Below, piece by piece: positions 6,958 to 51,552 of a DNA stretch of 64,000 bases (its first letter is position 1; every line of letters begins with the position of its first letter). Position numbers and translations under genes: made by a program. Where the stretch lies: sequence record MK327932.1; one strand, written 5' to 3'. Below the pieces are notes generated by a model that saw only the letters and a program-made list of their open reading frames with translations, was not told the origin of the DNA and searched no databases. Source of the DNA: Escherichia phage vB_EcoM_G2248.

Positions 6958-7128
6958 AAAAACCTCGCTTAGTGAAATGCTCGATCATTTTATTGATACA
7001 TGCAGCTTCACTATCGCCGGACACGTTCCAGCCGTATAGACCCCATCTAAAGCACATGGTAACAGTTCCATTGTGACGGCTTACCGTCACATCATTAAAT
7101 TCTGGGATACTTCGCATAATCATAATAA
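6958..7128 (-). CDS. hypothetical small protein (56 aa)
   Basis: untracked short ORF with GAGGA SD, fills the gap between dda and the next gene. Confidence 0.3.
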
Positions 7129-7133
7129 TTTCC

Positions 7134-8525
7134 TCAAATATAGTCTACTCGATACCGCGCACGGGTAACACCCACATATAATAACTGCATTGCCAATTCA
7201 AAGTCAACATTGTCTGTACACATACAAGGAGTATACAGGAACACGCGGTCTACGCTGACCCCTTGTGACTTATGAATGGTGCAAGCTGGTAATGCTTTTA
7301 CATTCAAGAACATACGTTTAATCGTCCAGAAGGAATCCCAATCTGGTTTAAATTTTGGATTCTCTTTCTTCATTTCGCGATATTGTCCGGCGACCGTATT
7401 CAGATAGATAAAGAAAATGTTCTTCTGACGTTGTTCTGTCAGAATGTTGATTTCTACCAAATCCGGTTTATCTGTAGTGATTCCGACTGCATCTAAACCG
7501 ACTTTCTGATTTAGGATTTCTTTGTCTTCGTCATCATCGACGCTTTCCACTTTCAGAGTATAGCCTAAAACTGGTTGCGGATCTACCCCCGTGCAACGTA
7601 ATGTAAATTCACGCGGGATGACCTCTTTAACTCGGATCATCTCACCATTGTTAAAAATGACATTGGGAATCTTCTTCCCGCGTTCATCTCGCAGATATTC
7701 GATCAACGGTTCCTGAGTAACCAGAATTTCATCTACAATCACTGGTTCATCTGTGTTATAAACGCGCTTGCGCACAATTTCATTGAGTTTTTCGACGCTC
7801 TTGTTAGTGTAAGCCAGAATACGGTTTTCTAGAAGGTCTTCCGGCGTTTTAACGGTTTCGAAATAATGTTTCATAAACTCCGGCAGAGTTGAGCTATGGA
7901 ATACACCCTCGTTACCGCACTGCTTTTCGAATACCCATTTACCGTTACGGACAGCGGTCGCCACATCAATGATCGGTGCATTAGAACGTTTAATTTCTGT
8001 CAACTCCACGTTTTGAAAATTTTCATCCGTGAAGAAAGGAGAAATTGACGTTGCACCGCTCGGATCAACTGGTCGTAACTGGTGCGGATCGCCAACGGCA
8101 ATAATAACAATTCGACCGTTGATACTCTTCATGAGAATATCAAATAACTTCTTATCGACCATACTCGCTTCATCAACAATGATGATCTGAACATCATCTA
8201 GTTTAGGAGTATCTTTTTGTTCAAATACTTGAGTATCTTCATAGTTGGTCGGGTTTAGTCGCAATAAAGCATGTAAAGTAAATGCTTGACGACCTACCGC
8301 TTTACTCAAAACTTTTTTAGCCTGGTGGGTAGGCGTTGCCAAAACCACACCAGTTACACCACGGCGGACCATTTCCTGAACAATGAATTTCATCATTGCG
8401 GTTTTACCAGTACCCGCCGCACCACGGACAGTTGTATGCTTCTTTTGTTCAATTCGTTTCATTAGAACATCAAAAGCATGTTTTTGTCCGTCTGTCAACA
8501 TATCGAAAGTTAATACTCTGCTCAT
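7134..8525 (-). CDS. dda: Dda-type SF1 DNA helicase
   Basis: 463 aa; Walker A GAAGTGKT, Walker B IIVDEASM, C-terminal LYVGVTRARY; collinear with T4 Dda. Confidence 0.9.
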   Translation of the reverse strand: MSRVLTFDMLTDGQKHAFDVLMKRIEQKKHTTVRGAAGTGKTAMMKFIVQEMVRRGVTGVVLATPTHQAKKVLSKAVGRQAFTLHALLRLNPTNYEDTQVFEQKDTPKLDDVQIIIVDEASMVDKKLFDILMKSINGRIVIIAVGDPHQLRPVDPSGATSISPFFTDENFQNVELTEIKRSNAPIIDVATAVRNGKWVFEKQCGNEGVFHSSTLPEFMKHYFETVKTPEDLLENRILAYTNKSVEKLNEIVRKRVYNTDEPVIVDEILVTQEPLIEYLRDERGKKIPNVIFNNGEMIRVKEVIPREFTLRCTGVDPQPVLGYTLKVESVDDDEDKEILNQKVGLDAVGITTDKPDLVEINILTEQRQKNIFFIYLNTVAGQYREMKKENPKFKPDWDSFWTIKRMFLNVKALPACTIHKSQGVSVDRVFLYTPCMCTDNVDFELAMQLLYVGVTRARYRVDYI

Positions 8526-8839
8526 TATCCTAAAATCCTCACCTTGCGAACACAGATAGTATTGAGTTCCCGCCGTACCCGTTCTTTTTCATATTCAGGA
8601 ATTTTGTATTCTATACCATCCCGAACAATTTCAGAAGATCGGATTATACCAAATTTTCTTTTAGGCACAACCTTGTATTTCGGTTCGCCTGCCAATAGAC
8701 TCTCACAATAATCTATCTGATCACACATTGACGCTAACGCAGCATCATGTGTTTCGCAAGTTAGGACGCGACCTTTCGCGTCCACTGAGTATTGAAAGAA
8801 TCCGTCTTTATCACGATAACATACAGCAAATACATGCAT
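8525..8839 (-). CDS. hypothetical protein (dda.1 position)
   Basis: 104-aa ORF, start overlaps upstream stop. Confidence 0.5.
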   Translation of the reverse strand: MHVFAVCYRDKDGFFQYSVDAKGRVLTCETHDAALASMCDQIDYCESLLAGEPKYKVVPKRKFGIIRSSEIVRDGIEYKIPEYEKERVRRELNTICVRKVRILG

Positions 8840-9594
8840 TATAAACCTACCTTCGCTTTCATCAATTCAATCCACGACGCATCAATCGGAAGCCCGTATT
8901 TCACGCGTTCTTTTTGTGCTGGCGTTAAGTTCTCATACTTAGAAAGAGATTCAATCAAAACGCTGGTATATTTTAGCACGATTTCGGTATTGTTTGCAAT
9001 AGCCTTGAGTTTTTCCTCTTTCTTGTTGATTTCGCTAAGGGCTTGCTTGAGATCTGCAATTTTCTGATAACGTTCTTCCATACGGAAGATAGTATTTTTA
9101 ATCGCTCGCTCGGCTGCCTCTGCTTTCTCCGGTTCGTTGTGCTTTTTGTGGCGCTCGATTGCTAATTTCTTTTCTTCGATTGCTATTTCCTGATTTTTGA
9201 TGCGATTCTCGTTAAGTTCGATCCACTCGATGTACTTCGCACGTAGGGCAATTTCATCATCAGAAAGTTTACCGTTAGTTCCTAGTTCCTGAATCTCTTT
9301 AAGAGATTCGATAGTGTGATTGCCACGGAAAGAATTATATTTCAGTTTAACCGGAATTACATTGCCATCAACATATCCCAGATTGCAATCAATGCGCTCT
9401 AAGGAGAGTCCGTCATCACCTTCACCGAAAGCCTCACCTGAATAGGCGCAATGAGTCTGACGGTAAATGTTACGCACAGTGACTAAGCTCATAGAGAAGT
9501 CTTTGTTGCGACGTGAAGCGCCAGCCATGATAGAGTTCAGACGGAAAACAACCAGCGCCAGTTCTTCGTTAGATTTAAAAGCAAACAGTTTCAT
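8839..9594 (-). CDS. hypothetical protein with K/E-rich coiled-coil C-terminus (srd position)
   Basis: 251-aa ORF; ATG at 9592-9594 with GGAGAATCAATTATG; promoter cassette at 9624-9652. Confidence 0.5.
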   Translation of the reverse strand: MKLFAFKSNEELALVVFRLNSIMAGASRRNKDFSMSLVTVRNIYRQTHCAYSGEAFGEGDDGLSLERIDCNLGYVDGNVIPVKLKYNSFRGNHTIESLKEIQELGTNGKLSDDEIALRAKYIEWIELNENRIKNQEIAIEEKKLAIERHKKHNEPEKAEAAERAIKNTIFRMEERYQKIADLKQALSEINKKEEKLKAIANNTEIVLKYTSVLIESLSKYENLTPAQKERVKYGLPIDASWIELMKAKVGL

Positions 9595-9623
9595 AATTGA
9601 TTCTCCTTAGTTGGTATGTGTGT

Positions 9624-9652
9624 ATTATTGTCTATCTGGTTTGTGCTGTCAA
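9624..9652 (-). promoter_or_regulatory. sigma70-type early promoter
   Basis: TTGACA-N17-AATAAT upstream of GGAGAATCAATTATG. Confidence 0.45.
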
Positions 9653-9655
9653 CAC

Positions 9656-10159
9656 TTAAATTAAAGAAAATTTGTAAATCTCTATCAGATCGCCATTACA
9701 CGCGTAAACTTCCTCGATCTCATCAAGGATCATGGTCGTCCCTGTCTTGTATATGCACTCGCGCTCATCTGCCAACATAGCATACAAAGACAGTCGAGTA
9801 GTCGGATTGTCATACTCTTTAGACACCACTCGGTCAATAGCATGTTCGTAATAATTCATGCAAGGCTTGGTAGGTTTTATTGCAATAATCTTTCCTGTTG
9901 CATAAACATCGGTTGCAAAGTCCTCTGCTGTTGATTGCAGTGGCGTAAAGCTCATAGGACGCTCTACAACGAAAGAATCACCTACAATTAAGGTATCCAG
10001 CTTACGGCCTTCTCTTTTGCTCACACCGCGATACAAGGCTTCATGATGCACTAACCGCTCAGTCTTTTCGATCAATCCATTAAGGATCGACATATCGATA
10101 TTTTCTTTAGAGTTCATCACTTCATCAATGATGTTAAGTTCTTCTGGTGTAAATTGCAT
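9656..10159 (-). CDS. ADP-ribosyltransferase, ModA/ModB-like
   Basis: 167 aa at the T4 modA/modB position; R-S-ExE-like triad candidates (LYRG, QSTAED, ADERE). Confidence 0.5.
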   Translation of the reverse strand: MQFTPEELNIIDEVMNSKENIDMSILNGLIEKTERLVHHEALYRGVSKREGRKLDTLIVGDSFVVERPMSFTPLQSTAEDFATDVYATGKIIAIKPTKPCMNYYEHAIDRVVSKEYDNPTTRLSLYAMLADERECIYKTGTTMILDEIEEVYACNGDLIEIYKFSLI

Positions 10160-10162
10160 AAT

Positions 10163-10192
10163 AAAAAAGCCTCCAATCTTTCGACGGGAGGC
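10163..10192 (-). terminator. rho-independent terminator-like hairpin that also sequesters the SD of the Mod-like gene
   Basis: minus-sense GCCUCC-loop-GGAGGC followed by U6, ending 8 nt before the ATG at 10157-10159. Confidence 0.45.
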
Positions 10193-10228
10193 ATAATAAA
10201 ACCATGATAGAGTAGTGTCAACTAATTT

Positions 10229-10753
10229 TTAGTAGCCGCGTTCTTGACGGGCGAAGTTTTCAGCATTTTTCAGATAGTACAGAATAAAGAGTTCTTGAGC
10301 GTCAATACCCAGCGGGATCATCTTTGACAGAATGAAGTGGATCGCGTCCACAAATTCAAATTTCACTTCAAGCTGATCTTCTGGTGACAGTTCAGAGAAT
10401 TTACGCGCTCGCGCTTCCCCGTGGTTCTTTTTCCACATTTTCCAGATTGCACTTGCATCTTTACCATTGGACATTCCACCCAGCGATGTGTAAAGCTCTC
10501 GTGTTTCGTCTGCGATAGCGTCATCCATCCGTTGCATCCAATCCAGCATTTCACCGCAAGTCTCTAGCTTAGTTGGATTTGGGACCCAATCAAATTTTTC
10601 GGATAGTGCAACCTGCAAACCAGTTTGCATTTCTAGCATCACCTGAAACGGATCTTTACCTTCTGCAATCGCGTGATGATATGCGGCGATAGCCGCGTTA
10701 ATATCTTTTTCGTTAACCAGACCAGCACAAGAATTAAATTCTGACATATTCAC
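10229..10753 (-). CDS. 56: dCTPase/dUTPase (MazG-like), gp56
   Basis: 174 aa; matches my recollection of T4 gp56, notably the C-terminal LYYLKNAENFARQERGY. Confidence 0.8.
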   Translation of the reverse strand: MNMSEFNSCAGLVNEKDINAAIAAYHHAIAEGKDPFQVMLEMQTGLQVALSEKFDWVPNPTKLETCGEMLDWMQRMDDAIADETRELYTSLGGMSNGKDASAIWKMWKKNHGEARARKFSELSPEDQLEVKFEFVDAIHFILSKMIPLGIDAQELFILYYLKNAENFARQERGY

Positions 10754-10761
10754 CTCATTAA

Positions 10762-11790
10762 TTAAAATTTACAATATTTCATAAACCGCATTTTAGCCAT
10801 CAGACCTTGTACGGTGTTCTCTTTGATATATTCCATGATCTGGTCGCGTGTAGCGCCCTCGTCCTGAATCATGGCGTTAACGTCTTTAGAATGCCACGGG
10901 CAACGGTCCCACAATACAATCTTTTCCCCTGCATTGATAAACTTTTCCAGTCGGTGCATTGTATCGGCAGACCGTGGTTCCGCATCAAGTACAAACACTC
11001 GCTGATCAGGGAAAGGAATTTCATCTAATCCCAAAGTACCGCCAGTAATTGCACACCCGTTATCAATAAACAATGAATCGATCGGACCTTCTAAGAAATA
11101 CACTGGCCTACTCGGATCGGCGCGTTCAAGACCATAGACCTTACTCGCTAACTCATGAGTTTTAATCGTCATATATTTGGTCTTTCCGTAATCCTTTCTC
11201 AATGCTCGCCCCTGAATGGATTCTATCTTGTTCTCGCGGTTAAAGATAGGAATCACTAAACGCGGTTCAGGTTGTGGATTCTTGAAAGTATCAGCCTTAA
11301 TGTGATTTGCTACCTTTTGCCATTCTCTCGTGAAATACAGAAGATCCCATTTATCGTGGGGAATGCAACGATCACTGACATACTTTATTATAGGATGATT
11401 AGCCGGAAGAGTATCTAATCTCTCGCAGAAAGGCAATGTTTGCACTTTCTTAATCTCCGGCTTTTCTACCTTTTTAAGTGGCTTGAACGTGGTGTTCTTG
11501 TGGTCGCCTTGTTCCTTCCGTCGTTCCATAAGCCATTCCCTGAATAGGTCCGGCTTATACTGTTTGAGAAATTCACCTAACGGCTGATTGTAGTTACAGT
11601 TGAAACAACCACAACGCAAACTATCTTTATAGGTATAGATACGGAATCGCGCTTGAGTATGATTTTTCTTTGAGTCACCGCAGATCGGACAACTACAGAC
11701 CAGCGTAAATGAGCTAGTATGCAACCGTTTAAAATTTCGTTCGCCGTATATGGCTTTTTCCGCTATTTCATAATCTGCGTAGTAAATCAT
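10762..11790 (-). CDS. 61: DNA primase gp61
   Basis: 342 aa (T4 gp61 length); N-terminal zinc-binding CxxC...CxxC; position upstream of 41. Confidence 0.9.
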   Translation of the reverse strand: MIYYADYEIAEKAIYGERNFKRLHTSSFTLVCSCPICGDSKKNHTQARFRIYTYKDSLRCGCFNCNYNQPLGEFLKQYKPDLFREWLMERRKEQGDHKNTTFKPLKKVEKPEIKKVQTLPFCERLDTLPANHPIIKYVSDRCIPHDKWDLLYFTREWQKVANHIKADTFKNPQPEPRLVIPIFNRENKIESIQGRALRKDYGKTKYMTIKTHELASKVYGLERADPSRPVYFLEGPIDSLFIDNGCAITGGTLGLDEIPFPDQRVFVLDAEPRSADTMHRLEKFINAGEKIVLWDRCPWHSKDVNAMIQDEGATRDQIMEYIKENTVQGLMAKMRFMKYCKF

Positions 11791-11799
11791 AATAACCTC

Positions 11800-12003
11800 T
11801 TATAGCTCAAATTTCATGAAAGTTCCTACACTTTCATTTTCATTCTCTCCGTTTTCATCTAAGCCAAATTTGTAGACACTACCATCTGGCGATGTGTAAG
11901 AGAATACACGAAAACGGCCTACCGAATCAAGTTCTGTAAATTCATATTCTTTTCCGGCTTCAAAAAGTGCATATGTGCTTTTAAGACATTTCATCGTAAT
12001 CAT
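11800..12003 (-). CDS. hypothetical protein
   Basis: 67-aa ORF, start overlaps upstream stop (ATGA). Confidence 0.45.
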   Translation of the reverse strand: MITMKCLKSTYALFEAGKEYEFTELDSVGRFRVFSYTSPDGSVYKFGLDENGENENESVGTFMKFEL

Positions 12004-12731: not shown

Positions 12732-13367
12732 TCAAGCGAATGTAGAAAGCAAATGTTTTGTTTCTTTCAGTTGTCGTTCAAGATCTTTGCGTTTCTCTTT
12801 AAGTTGCATTTTAGCATTATTTCGCTGTTTTTCAACATCTTTATCAATACTCTTATTCCAGTTATCAATATCAGAATAAGTTGGCATACCCAATTCTAGA
12901 CCTAATGCGGTTGGATACAGGGTAACAGTCCATAAACCGCTAATCTTCTTAAATAGGTCGGGGTGTAGTGTACTATCTACATCTTCCGGTGTCAACTCTT
13001 TTTCTTCTTTCAGTGGTGGGATCTCGTCATATGGTTCCAGTGCATTTACTTTAATATCAGATACCTCATCAAAGAATCCGCGTACATCCGCAGGAAATAC
13101 ACAAGCAATTTCCCAACCGTGATCACGCAGAGAAGTAATATTTTTCACTCCCCCGCCATGTGTGATGATTGATGTGACATTGCCATCAAGGTCCACCGAA
13201 TTTACGAGAAATGGCTTATCGTCTGTCAGATCATTATAAAACTGTGCTTCGGCTGTAGTCATCTCCAGAAACAGATCTCGGATCGGACGACCATCAGGTG
13301 CGTTACCTTCCTTGAGAGTATAAAAGCGACTTACGATCCATTTTGGCGGTAAAGCATTAGCGATCAT
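12732..13367 (-). CDS. hypothetical protein
   Basis: 211-aa ORF immediately downstream of 41; acidic middle region, basic coiled-coil tail. Confidence 0.5.
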   Translation of the reverse strand: MIANALPPKWIVSRFYTLKEGNAPDGRPIRDLFLEMTTAEAQFYNDLTDDKPFLVNSVDLDGNVTSIITHGGGVKNITSLRDHGWEIACVFPADVRGFFDEVSDIKVNALEPYDEIPPLKEEKELTPEDVDSTLHPDLFKKISGLWTVTLYPTALGLELGMPTYSDIDNWNKSIDKDVEKQRNNAKMQLKEKRKDLERQLKETKHLLSTFA

Positions 13368-28285: not shown

Positions 28286-29755
28286 CTATTCCCCATTGCC
28301 ATTATACTTTCTTTGCTTAGTTATCCACACTCTAACCATCTCTACAGATTCGCCGTCAGACGGATCAAGAGTTTTTCCTTTTTTCTTCATACGGTACTTA
28401 AATCCGTTAAATCTTGCATTCTCTTGCTCGTTAAAGTCGAACATCTTTTTAAATGATTTTCGCCCTTTACGCTCGCCACATTCTAGCGGAATCATTCGGT
28501 CTGTTATTACATTGGCATTAGGTAGAAACGTTTTTAGATAATCTACCAACGCCCAATCAGGAACATATAGATTAACATTCTCCTTGCTCTCGTTGTCTCT
28601 CAGGTTACAACGCAAACATAATTGAAATGCTGGTTCCAGATAATCAGACACATGACGCGCTTTCAAAAACTCGTTTGTCGGGAGATCGCAACTATTAGCA
28701 AGACCTTTTAAAATATCAATCTCCCATCGTTGAGGGTTAAAGCTGAACATCACAGCAACATTTTTATGATGAATGTAAGAGTTAAGACCATAAGATCCGT
28801 AAGGTATCCTCTCACCAATACCATTTGTGCACGCTTCACGGTCCCGATTCACGGTATAAATGAAGTCATCACCACATTCATTTTTAACCATATCAACAAG
28901 ACGTTCAAAGGTATTGTTTGTTTCTGACTGGTGACGCGACCATCGTTCAGAATCCGTCATAAGGATGATGTTAACTCTATCTGTATTTTTATACTCTTTG
29001 AAATATAGTCTGGATTCTAGCGCACTCGGAACAAAATCGCAATTTGCATAGTATCGTAGATACTTCCCACTATATGTATCAAAGAGATTTGCACATGCTA
29101 TCGTAACCTTTTTAAAGTCTCCCCACGTACCGTGTTTGTTATCGTTCAAGAAAACAATTTTCGACCCATTCTTCCGGTGTCCTTCGTTATGTTTTACCAT
29201 AACGTTGATTTTCTTCTCTAATAACGCCTCATAAAGCCCTCTAAGAGAAGAATCGATCATATCAGTACCATCCTTTGCACTTTCTATCTTTTCTTTGATA
29301 ACGGCCTTCTCAGAGTCTTTTAGAACTAAGTTCTGTAGGCATTCCGATTCGTCGGCGATTGGTTCGCAATGCTTCGTGATAAGTTCAAGATTAGACTTAA
29401 ACGGATACTCATTAAATTCAACCAGTTGAGGAACTTCATCAATGTAAAGAGCATATTCACCAAACATTTTTGAACGTTCCATATTAGATAACGCTGTATG
29501 TGTAATGAATATCACATCAGCACCATCTTTAACTGATTGCATTATCGACGCTTGCACTGTCTTAAGGCTTCTTAGTCTTGTGCTATCAATCAAGACAGCA
29601 CGACCGCCCATTCTTTTAAACTTATTGTAAGATTGTTCACTTAAAACACGAGATGGCGAAGCAATAACCGCTTTTTCTTTTGTCTCTAGGACGTGGGAAA
29701 GTATAGCATCAGTTTTCCCCGCCGCTGGCAATGCGATTAATGTTTCAATCTTCAT
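28286..29755 (-). CDS. helicase-like P-loop NTPase, function unknown
   Basis: 489 aa; Walker A-like LPAAGKTD, motif Ia-like ASPSRVLSEQ, Walker B YIDEVPQ; C-terminal ~300 aa without recognisable motifs. Confidence 0.55.
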   Translation of the reverse strand: MKIETLIALPAAGKTDAILSHVLETKEKAVIASPSRVLSEQSYNKFKRMGGRAVLIDSTRLRSLKTVQASIMQSVKDGADVIFITHTALSNMERSKMFGEYALYIDEVPQLVEFNEYPFKSNLELITKHCEPIADESECLQNLVLKDSEKAVIKEKIESAKDGTDMIDSSLRGLYEALLEKKINVMVKHNEGHRKNGSKIVFLNDNKHGTWGDFKKVTIACANLFDTYSGKYLRYYANCDFVPSALESRLYFKEYKNTDRVNIILMTDSERWSRHQSETNNTFERLVDMVKNECGDDFIYTVNRDREACTNGIGERIPYGSYGLNSYIHHKNVAVMFSFNPQRWEIDILKGLANSCDLPTNEFLKARHVSDYLEPAFQLCLRCNLRDNESKENVNLYVPDWALVDYLKTFLPNANVITDRMIPLECGERKGRKSFKKMFDFNEQENARFNGFKYRMKKKGKTLDPSDGESVEMVRVWITKQRKYNGNGE

Positions 29756-46892: not shown

Positions 46893-49037
46893 TTATTCAC
46901 GTCCATTTGTATAGTAGTGTTTGAATCGACCGTAACCAGTTTCAATGGTCATTGTTCTTTGGTGAACAATAGCCCAATAACCGTTACAGGAATCTTGCAG
47001 ATACAAATCTTTACCTTTCATAAACTCATTAAAGATTGTTTTCTGCCAGTCATAATAGACAGAATCTTCAATCTTATCCATCCAACCGTGTGGGTCTTCA
47101 AGCAGTTCAACAAGTTCATCGATAACCCAATACGGACACGGACTAAATCGACCTTTACTAAATTCGTTGAACACAGTAACGGTTTTAGCTTCCGGTCTAG
47201 GTTCATCAGGTTCTTCCGGTCGACGATTAACCACAACCTGAACATATTTTGTATAACCGATAATTTCCCCAGAGTCCAACTCATCGTTATTGTTCTGGTC
47301 AGCAAAAGCAACGAATCTATAGACTCCAGAGTCACCTATAGTAGCATTAACTTTTGTGTATATCGGTGTTTTGGGATCGATAATCGGCAACCGAACACCA
47401 TTTTTACTAAACTCATACGTTGGAACGTATGTAGAAGGAGGATTTAATGTCGTTGCTTCTAATGTCAAAGTATCCCCTTCCATAATCTGTACAGGATGAG
47501 GTCCGTCAAATTCCATATTAGGAACAACTTCAACATTATAGGTTGCACGCCCTGCAATATCATAATCATGATGCGCACTATATGGGTCTACACTAGGACT
47601 ATCTCTATATTCATGCGCCCAAATGCCATTATGTTCACGATCCGCAGAGTCAGTAATTTTATACTCTTTAGCCTCAATTGGTAGTTCGGTCACAAAAACA
47701 TCATTTTTTGTTATAACCAAAGAACGAGTTTGAGTAAAATCGCTACTTGCGGGTGGCTCTGGATCGACGATCTTAATAACAATAGGTTCACCAACCTCAA
47801 TATTTCGATAATCGTATTCTTTGTCATAAATGTCAAGCATACGACGGTCGTAAAATAATGGCCTTCCTTTATTGAGGTCATATGCACCATCTTGATTAGA
47901 AGGGGCAACTAGTAATTGTAAAGCAACGCTATTATCATACTGCAAGTCCGATAAAGTAATTCGGTCATAACCTTCATCGCCATATTTTTTGCTTTGTAGA
48001 GTTTTACCACCCAACATCCACGTAAAATAAACATTATTATTAATCAAACTATAATGTCGATTCCACGTATTATCGGATGTTACTAATGGCATATCTAGAT
48101 TGACGGTGGACCCAGAAGGATAACGAAATTCAACGGAATTAAAATCACGATCAAAAAATTCATTGTCTTTGATTGTTACCGTGAATCTATGACGATCACC
48201 ATCAATATATGCTGTCCCTTCTCTGGTTTCACTTGCGGCCTTATATGCACGAACCAAAGCAACATAAACACCCGCATCGGTTTCTTGAGCATGTTTCGTT
48301 ACAAACAGAGTCCTGTCTGTAGATTCATAAATTAAGCTACCATCTTCTCTTTCCAGACGATAACGGACAACGGTATATTCATCATTGGCGGGAGAATCGT
48401 CTGTCACCGTAAAATAGACAGGAGCATATTTCTGTGCGTTAAAAATTTCCGCGCTTTCCTGAATGGTGGCCTCAAACGGATAAACAAATTTCACGTCACC
48501 CGCTTCATCGCTAAGTTCCATTCTATATGTGCCAGAAAATTCAGGCCATGCAAATTTTGCAATTTTAAATTCACGATGGTCTAAACCAAGATCCCCGTCA
48601 ATAGTATCAACAAGACCGTCATTATAATAAAGGTCGATAGAAATGTTTTCTGGGATATGAATACGAAAAACAATTTTAGCCTTTATTTCGTCACCAACCA
48701 CAAAGGAAGTTGGAGGATATACATATTCAACATACTGATTATCAAATAATTCAAATGTGAAATTTTCCGTGCCGATATCAACGGATTCACCAGCAAAATC
48801 ATTATCATCTTGGGCATAGCCACGAACATTAACAGACCATCCTGTTTTATCGCTTTCTTTCACAGATTTTAATTCAAAAGACGGTGTATCGGTTGTAGCA
48901 ACAACCACCCCACCTTTTTTCCAAACATAACCTTTTTTCGGTTTAGTTGGATCATCTGATTCGGCAGCAATTGAGCACGCGAACGTATGAGGAAGCCAAA
49001 TGGTTGTGTTAATGCTAGTATCTTTTACTTCTGGCAT
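46893..49037 (-). CDS. large beta-rich protein, function unknown
   Basis: 714 aa; strong SD GGGGGAA; repetitive beta-strand-like segments and distinct C-terminal domain; followed by terminator 46856-46883. Confidence 0.55.
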   Translation of the reverse strand: MPEVKDTSINTTIWLPHTFACSIAAESDDPTKPKKGYVWKKGGVVVATTDTPSFELKSVKESDKTGWSVNVRGYAQDDNDFAGESVDIGTENFTFELFDNQYVEYVYPPTSFVVGDEIKAKIVFRIHIPENISIDLYYNDGLVDTIDGDLGLDHREFKIAKFAWPEFSGTYRMELSDEAGDVKFVYPFEATIQESAEIFNAQKYAPVYFTVTDDSPANDEYTVVRYRLEREDGSLIYESTDRTLFVTKHAQETDAGVYVALVRAYKAASETREGTAYIDGDRHRFTVTIKDNEFFDRDFNSVEFRYPSGSTVNLDMPLVTSDNTWNRHYSLINNNVYFTWMLGGKTLQSKKYGDEGYDRITLSDLQYDNSVALQLLVAPSNQDGAYDLNKGRPLFYDRRMLDIYDKEYDYRNIEVGEPIVIKIVDPEPPASSDFTQTRSLVITKNDVFVTELPIEAKEYKITDSADREHNGIWAHEYRDSPSVDPYSAHHDYDIAGRATYNVEVVPNMEFDGPHPVQIMEGDTLTLEATTLNPPSTYVPTYEFSKNGVRLPIIDPKTPIYTKVNATIGDSGVYRFVAFADQNNNDELDSGEIIGYTKYVQVVVNRRPEEPDEPRPEAKTVTVFNEFSKGRFSPCPYWVIDELVELLEDPHGWMDKIEDSVYYDWQKTIFNEFMKGKDLYLQDSCNGYWAIVHQRTMTIETGYGRFKHYYTNGRE

Positions 49038-50940: not shown

Positions 50941-51143
50941 TTACATTTAGGGCAATGCGGTTCTTTAATATAATACCCGTCTGTCTTTGGAACACTAACA
51001 GGAGCGGTTTTTATATTGTATTCAGTGAAACAACGAAAACAAGTTACGTTTTCTACAGACTGACGTTTCACCCAATCACCGGAATAGAGATCATTTTTAT
51101 TTGTCATATTCCACCACCACAATGTTAATGTCTGGAGTGGCAA
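50913..51143 (-). CDS. Cys-rich zinc-ribbon-like protein
   Basis: 76 aa; CFRCF...CPKCKC. Confidence 0.4.
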   Translation of the reverse strand: MPLQTLTLWWWNMTNKNDLYSGDWVKRQSVENVTCFRCFTEYNIKTAPVSVPKTDGYYIKEPHCPKCKCRLYWSHL

Positions 51144-51552
51144 TATTAATGATTTCTTCTACACATTCCCACTCAAGGCCACCGATACCGCAACCGATTT
51201 TAGGAATATAGAAAGGCTGTATAGCACCTTCAAAAACATCATTGAGAGCCTCAAATCCTTTCAGGATAGCACCATATTCAGCATTTGGACCCGGTCGGAA
51301 TTGGGTATAGAGATTAACCCCGCACCAATTATAACCATTAACTTGATGCGTCCAGACACTAAACCCACCCAGCTTTTCGACCTTACCGCGAGAAGTTTGC
51401 TTGTCAATCTCTAACGCTTGCGGGAACTCTTTCGCGATCTTCGCAGCAATACCAGCGCCCATAGTATGAAAACAATTACAACCATGAATTAAATGACCTT
51501 TTCCTTGTTTAAACAGGGCGATGAGATCGCCCTTTACAGTATCAATAATCAT
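51097..51552 (-). CDS. macro domain protein (ADP-ribose binding/hydrolase fold)
   Basis: 151 aa; VKGDL...HGCNCFHTMGAGIAAKI and IPKIGCGIGGLEWE resemble macro-domain glycine-rich loops. Confidence 0.6.
   Translation of the reverse strand: MIIDTVKGDLIALFKQGKGHLIHGCNCFHTMGAGIAAKIAKEFPQALEIDKQTSRGKVEKLGGFSVWTHQVNGYNWCGVNLYTQFRPGPNAEYGAILKGFEALNDVFEGAIQPFYIPKIGCGIGGLEWECVEEIINIATPDINIVVVEYDK

Follow-up and report, generated by a model that had tools for sequence, protein, structure and literature searches.

The mod locus and its upstream region

The window, a stretch of 64,000 nucleotides, is Krischvirus (RB49/Phi1 group) coliphage DNA. In a nucleotide comparison, its bases 7000-12000 were 99.7% identical to Escherichia phage vB_EcoM_G5211 and ~98% identical to Phi1, GEC-3S and other Krischvirus (RB49-group) phages. 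An open reading frame for a protein of 167 amino acids is located in this segment; it is real, and its boundaries are exactly those originally predicted. For the coordinates of all features see Table 1.

Table 1. Positions of the mod gene, its neighbours, regulatory elements and sequence motifs, and of the macro-domain gene.
Feature	Position	Strand	Remarks
Dda helicase	7134-8525		neighbour of the mod gene
dda.1/Y01A protein	8525-8839		neighbour of the mod gene
Srd	8839-9594	minus	adjoins the mod gene
mod gene CDS	9656..10159	minus	ATG start, 167 aa, Mod_ADP_RT (PF26816), short clade; from the ORF listing
E132-R133-E134	9758..9766	minus	predicted catalytic E-x-E, ARTT region, directly before strand 135-137
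Q75-S76-T77-A78-E79-D80	9920..9937	minus	earlier serine candidate, not a conserved motif
S70-F71-T72	9944..9952	minus	proposed STS-motif equivalent
L42-Y43-R44-G45	10025..10036	minus	predicted NAD-binding arginine, strand β1
Hairpin GCCUCC-N12-GGAGGC + U6	10163..10192	minus	-17.1 kcal/mol, z=-2.4
Early (sigma-70 type) promoter GTTGACA-17-TATTAT	10193..10221	minus	11/12 consensus, directly upstream of the mod gene
gp56 MazG-like dCTPase	10229-10753		neighbour of the mod gene
gp61 primase	10762-11790		neighbour of the mod gene
Macro-domain gene	51097..51552	minus	Pfam Macro 29.4 bits, cut-off 22

The gene order dda - dda.1 - srd - mod - 56 - 61 is that of T4 (dda, dda.1, srd, modA, modB, ..., 56, ..., 61) and confirms the claim that the gene lies where T4 has modA and modB. 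T4 carries two mod paralogues, whereas the phage studied here has one mod gene with gene 56 directly adjoining. The placement of the mod gene between srd and 56 is kept in diverged metagenomic relatives. Neither a second Mod-like gene nor an Alt-like gene was found within the window; for RB49, diverged alt genes have been reported at other sites of the genome (PMC1524935). The 167-residue protein, present in one copy within the window, is the sole Mod-type enzyme of this Krischvirus.

The neighbouring Srd homologue matched phrog_1400 at 3e-73. Its N-terminal ~100-170 residues also matched HNH-endonuclease/endonuclease VII PHROGs (5e-12, 1.5e-10 and 6e-5), which suggests that Srd, known as an 'anti-sigma decoy', may contain an HNH-like domain.

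The ATG of the mod gene is the first in-frame start and is separated by only 23 codons from the upstream in-frame stop. Since this gap is filled by the promoter and the hairpin, the short N-terminus is not an annotation artefact. The promoter is conserved in two diverged relatives (L006 and L007). Its G at -33 corresponds to the early-promoter preference of RB49 (PMC1524935), and in T4, too, the mod genes belong to the early genes (PMC10468400). Over the whole window we counted 33 promoters resembling TTGACA-N16-18-TATAAT on the minus strand and none on the plus strand (0.48 in shuffles). Most of the 33 have a G before TTGACA, and together they form a very dense array of early promoters.

Promoter, terminator-like hairpin and Shine-Dalgarno sequence are packed into 59 nt (10163-10221, minus strand). 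The 3' arm of the hairpin is the Shine-Dalgarno sequence GGAGG (10170-10174), and the 5' arm begins right after the -10 hexamer. In relatives with a protein identity of only 63-74% and saturated synonymous sites, the 88-nt intergenic region is still 91% identical. One compensatory change in the stem, U-A to C-G, was observed in L007; it is not significant (171 of 500 shuffles, three sequences). From this arrangement we infer a regulatory role for the hairpin. A transcript starting ~7 nt past the -10 hexamer would begin just beyond the 5' arm and keep the ribosome-binding site accessible. In transcripts reading through from gene 56, the hairpin would fold and either terminate transcription or mask the ribosome-binding site.

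Comparison of the mod gene with the same two relatives resulted in dN/dS values of 0.08 and 0.12, at saturated synonymous sites (pS 0.72-0.73). By this measure the gene is under purifying selection.

Family membership and predicted fold

The original prediction of a Mod-family ADP-ribosyltransferase was borne out by several searches. The reading frame matched phrog_832, 'RNA polymerase ADP-ribosylase', with E=1e-20. BLASTP aligned the protein with T4 ModB at 8e-11 (33% identity over 113 residues, N-terminal two thirds) and with T4 ModA at 2e-6 (23% identity over 159 residues, reaching the C-terminus). In precomputed assignments, the Pfam family PF26816 (Mod_ADP_RT) is given to cluster P0001 (99% identical) as well as to relatives with 74% and 63% identity. 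Scans of the reading frame against Pfam-A and NCBIfam gave nothing above threshold; the scanned Pfam set did not contain PF26816. In the NCBIfam scan T4 ModA and ModB were likewise without a match, so that the empty scans reflect library coverage and are no evidence against membership. A phmmer search of the protein against PDB sequences gave no match, and the family profile found only XopAI there, marginally (E=0.19) and at the E-x-E region.

The Mod family has few members: when 1.84 billion representatives were searched exhaustively with phmmer, 10 representative clusters were obtained at E<=1e-3. The same protein (at least 99% identity) is found in at least 56 phage records; in Phi1, ECD7, Skers and W115 it is identical and annotated as modB/ADP-ribosylase. 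The labels in these records vary between "modB", modA, "ADP-ribosylase" and "ModA or ModB ADP-ribosyltransferase", and one reads "ADP ribosylate ribosomal protein". The gene is thus already catalogued, and a Mod ADP-ribosylase annotation has existed in RB49/Phi1-type phages for years. The full Mod architecture of ~200 residues with an N-terminal segment of ~30 residues is absent here, the alignment beginning at residue 32 of ModA and residue 31 of ModB.

An AlphaFold (AF2) model calculated from a 12-sequence alignment had a pLDDT of 86.8 and a pTM of 0.80. The N-terminal part of the model comprises two helices, a strand (residues 42-45), a helix (48-54) and two further strands (62-64 and 69-72). 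These are followed by a helix (75-85), strands 90-95 and 100-102, two helices, the E-x-E motif and strands 135-137, 142-152 and 158-166. A Foldseek search against the PDB resulted in 109 matches at E<=1e-3, and the best 50 of the 109 were all ADP-ribosyltransferase entries. These 50 include Certhrax, CDTa, Vip2, C3 exoenzymes, iota Ia, Plx2a, ExoT, Tre1 and a Listeria ADP-ribosyltransferase toxin. Among predicted viral structures, ModA/ModB-like proteins matched best (TM 0.85-0.93), and Alt-, VIP2- and C3-like phage ADP-ribosyltransferases were farther away. The predicted fold is the ADP-ribosyltransferase fold of the R-S-E (cholera-toxin-like, ARTC) class.

The best structural matches were with R-S-E toxins of the C3, iota/CDTa, Vip2 and Certhrax types (Foldseek E 1e-7 to 1e-5, TM ~0.55-0.64), and the E-x-E motif aligns with E-Y-E of CDTa. 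The identity to these toxins, however, is only 9-16%, and outside E-x-E there is no significant sequence match. The spacing between arginine and serine is 26 residues here and ~43 in the toxins, whereas that between serine and glutamate is 64 residues here and ~42 in the toxins; two extra helices precede E-x-E in the phage protein. Unlike the toxins, the phage protein is not secreted and has no binding component.

Candidate active-site residues

Alignments of 3, 5, 12 and 14 family sequences were mapped column by column onto the residues of ModA and ModB. Invariant in the family alignments, with up to 14 members, are R44, G45, S70, A78, F81, Y86, T88, E132 and E134. The original prediction had assigned an R-S-ExE triad to the strings LYRG, QSTAED and ADERE, all of which are present in the translation (residues 42-45, 75-80 and 130-134). 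In the alignments to ModA and ModB the arginine and the E-x-E motif held their places, but the serine of QSTAED did not.

R44 of LYRG is equivalent to the arginine of both T4 enzymes: the pair R44-G45 is invariant in the 14- and 12-member sets, corresponds to R72-G73 of ModA and R73-G74 of ModB, and sits on the predicted strand 42-45. A ModB mutant with the exchanges R73A,G74A shows neither ADP-ribosylation nor RNAylation (PMC10468400). E132 and E134 of ADERE, whose E-R-E codons GAG CGC GAG were confirmed in the raw bases, are invariant in all full-length members and correspond to E163/E165 of ModA and E171/E173 of ModB. Using hhalign and hmmsearch, the motif was paired with G-E-Y-E-V of the solved CDTa structure and with N-E-M-E-V of T4 Alt. 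According to one report on ModB, E173 is essential and R73 binds NAD (bioRxiv 10.1101/2025.07.11.664405). E-x-E, not Q-x-E, is typical of arginine-modifying enzymes (PMC8120803).

The situation is different for the serine. QSTAED had to be abandoned as the serine element, since the S76 column is hypervariable and is located inside helix 75-85 of the model. Across 14 members this column reads S/T/A/S/E/V/G/S/D/S/S/K/N/H, and S76 is already replaced by T and A in the 74%- and 63%-identical relatives; the only invariant residue within QSTAED is A78. The only invariant serine of the family alignments is S70, which is equivalent to S96 of ModA and S99 of ModB. The segment S70-F71-T72 is invariant or near-invariant and in the model belongs to strand 69-72 (M-S-F-T), directly ahead of helix 75-85. 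In structures of C3 and cholera toxin, the strand that carries the STS motif leads straight into a helix or loop, a placement that fits S70-F71-T72 and not S76.

A review table citing the original mutational study gives the ModA triad as R72, S109 and E165, and the same table also names F127 and F129 (PMC8120803). S109 of ModA corresponds to T83 in the phage protein, a helix position in a variable column (T, A, D, S, G, C, N, Y). An hhalign comparison of the Mod family with a CDTa fragment aligned E-x-E alone and not the STS motif. Sub-profiles covering residues 38-100 and 56-100 did not recover the STS segments of CDTa and Alt, and global pairwise alignment of the strand-helix-strand segment to CDTa/Alt scored like shuffled sequences (z about 0). 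For this protein, a pairwise alignment paired the STS motif of CDTa with Q-S-T, a pairing that was inconsistent across the family. We also discarded the likeness by eye between S-x-T-x8-F-A and S-T-S-x8-F-A, as it had no statistical support. On the basis of its invariance and its placement on a predicted strand, S70 is likely to be the family serine. It differs from both the earlier QSTAED choice and the ModA residue given in the literature.

Based on the alignments and the model, the gene very probably encodes an early-expressed, NAD-dependent mono-ADP-ribosyltransferase of the T4 Mod family that is probably arginine-specific. Direct support exists for the homology and the fold class, for conserved catalytic residues and synteny, and for purifying selection and an early-type promoter dedicated to the gene. 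In the proposed mechanism, NAD+ would be held by R44 (strand β1) together with S70-x-T72 on the strand next to it. E134, aided by E132, would polarise the nicotinamide ribose. An arginine of the host protein would then attack C1'', whereupon nicotinamide would leave and ADP-ribose would remain on the target. By analogy with T4, targets might be RNA polymerase alpha, S1 and EF-Tu, and thus transcription or translation, or else a defence protein.

Relation to ModA and ModB, and the macro-domain gene

A neighbour-joining tree of 21 family members, calculated without bootstrap values, groups the protein with P0002, P0003, P0016, P0017 and P0018 (161-176 residues). ModA and ModB each have a clade of their own, a third clade comprises proteins of 202-204 residues, and the short clade stands apart from all three. 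The nearest isolate relatives of P0016 and P0017 are Krischvirus proteins (47% and 40%, respectively), so the rest of the short clade is metagenome-only. Over 157-161 shared columns the identity is 27-29% to ModB and 22-23% to ModA. As judged from these comparisons the protein is orthologous to neither ModA nor ModB, and the name "modB" is a best-hit label, not a statement of orthology. Because the short clade is separate, the sequence does not tell which host protein would be modified, and target predictions carried over from T4 via the "modB" label are unsafe.

We tentatively consider the possibility that the short Mod clade (161-176 residues; Krischviruses and a few uncultured phages) is a third functional type. 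Such an enzyme would combine or replace the roles of ModA and ModB or hit another host protein, e.g. a defence factor, by means of a minimal core without the N-terminal segment. If this is true, the family serine would be that of S-x-[ST] on the strand (S96 of ModA, S99 of ModB) and not the published S109.

It is rather doubtful that the protein is a functional orthologue of T4 ModB. In that role it would act on ribosomal protein S1, L2, EF-Tu and related proteins of translation by ADP-ribosylation and perhaps also by RNAylation with NAD-capped RNA. ModB is indeed the best pairwise match among the characterised enzymes and belongs to the same Pfam/PHROG family. It shares L-Y-R-G and S-F-T with the phage protein, and Y-R-G, S-F-T and E-x-E are found at aligned positions (R73/G74, S99-T101 and E171/E173 of ModB). 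Both are early genes in the same genome neighbourhood, and modB is the name in most database records. These names are inconsistent, however, and the tree places the protein in its separate short clade. ModB has 207 residues compared with 167 here, the identity ranges from 27 to 33% depending on the alignment, and the overall value of just 27% has to be seen against 23% to ModA. The BLAST match is confined to the N-terminal two thirds. Moreover, the first ~31 residues of ModB and its specific insertion of ~12 residues ahead of E-x-E are missing in the phage protein.

A functional equivalent of T4 ModA, modifying Arg265 of both RNA polymerase alpha subunits and thereby shifting transcription off host and early promoters, seems unlikely as well. 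Family and fold class are the same, R72/G73, S96 and E163/E165 of ModA are aligned, and the alignment runs full-length to the C-terminus. The gene adjoins srd, as modA does in T4, and Krischvirus early promoters have UP-like A-rich regions (PMC1524935). Against this stand the low identity and the separate clade. ModA is also longer (200 residues) and has W-R-G and S-A-S where the protein studied here has Y-R-G and S-F-T, as in ModB.

We regard as improbable that the protein is mainly a counter-defence enzyme which ADP-ribosylates a host immunity or toxin protein, in the manner of Alt with MazF or in the evasion of Mokosh type I. T4 Alt inactivates MazF (PMC8120803). Alt is also required against Mokosh type I, a ModA orthologue was flagged in the same screen, and the small family is fast-evolving. 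But no defence-related context was found at the locus, the gene is part of a conserved early block for replication and transcription, and it is near-invariant in the Krischvirus records, unlike typical variable anti-defence loci. A catalytically dead Mod remnant without its N-terminus, to which the ~31 missing residues and the empty Pfam and NCBIfam scans (the former without PF26816) could point, is highly improbable, as the catalytic residues are all intact, dN/dS is low, a compact fold is predicted confidently, the short length is kept across the clade down to 39% identity, and both a dedicated promoter and the ribosome-binding site are conserved. With every catalytic residue in 167 residues, the protein would be a convenient minimal enzyme for users of ModB-type RNAylation.

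The original prediction had further combined the mod gene with a macro-domain gene as writer and eraser of ADP-ribosylation. The macro-domain gene does exist, with a Pfam Macro score above the cut-off. Its product is DarG-like at 1.4e-13 and matched phrog_335 at 5e-63. It is 45% identical to T4 Tk.4 over the full length, and the gene occupies the same tk-vs position. By identity and position the gene is the orthologue of T4 tk.4 (AdfM). In a transposon screen T4 Tk.4 was required for DarTG2 resistance, and the Krischvirus macro protein is probably an anti-DarTG2 factor that would remove ADP-ribose from DNA.

Arginine-linked ADP-ribose is reversed by hydrolases of the ARH/DraG type and is not known to be a substrate of macrodomains. 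ARH1 removes the marks of ModB-type enzymes, which are arginine N-glycosides (PMC10468400). A role of the macro gene as an eraser dedicated to Mod marks was dismissed; its DarG-likeness, the Tk.4 orthology and the chemistry of the arginine linkage all argue against it. The proposed pair does not stand either when compared with known systems. As in DraT/DraG, Tre1/Tri1 and DarT/DarG, one genome contains an ADP-ribosyltransferase and a domain type that removes ADP-ribose (macro). In contrast to those pairs, the two genes are 41 kb apart here, the macro protein is an orthologue of Tk.4/AdfM, which is proposed to de-ADP-ribosylate DNA and is aimed at a host toxin, and no ARH/DraG-type enzyme for arginine marks was identified. 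T4 too carries mod genes plus a macro gene, so that the co-occurrence is not special. The macro gene is probably functionally unlinked to the mod gene, and writer and eraser most likely belong to different conflicts.

Three further reading frames in the early region, all on the minus strand, were recorded. A frame of 714 residues (46893-49037) is present in full length in only five phage records, with at most 78% identity (Brandy, UPWr_E1). In most Krischviruses, including G5211 as the closest relative of the window, only short remnants are left (residues 5-32; residues 647-714 in Phi1). Its sole family signal is a weak Hoc-like/Ig-like match in the C-terminal part (phrog_1149, 4e-11), and the frame has the appearance of a variable accessory gene that most lineages have lost. 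The other two frames are conserved: one of 489 residues (28286-29755) matched phrog_2467 at 3.5e-174, and one of 211 residues (12732-13367) matched phrog_16187 at 1.8e-148.
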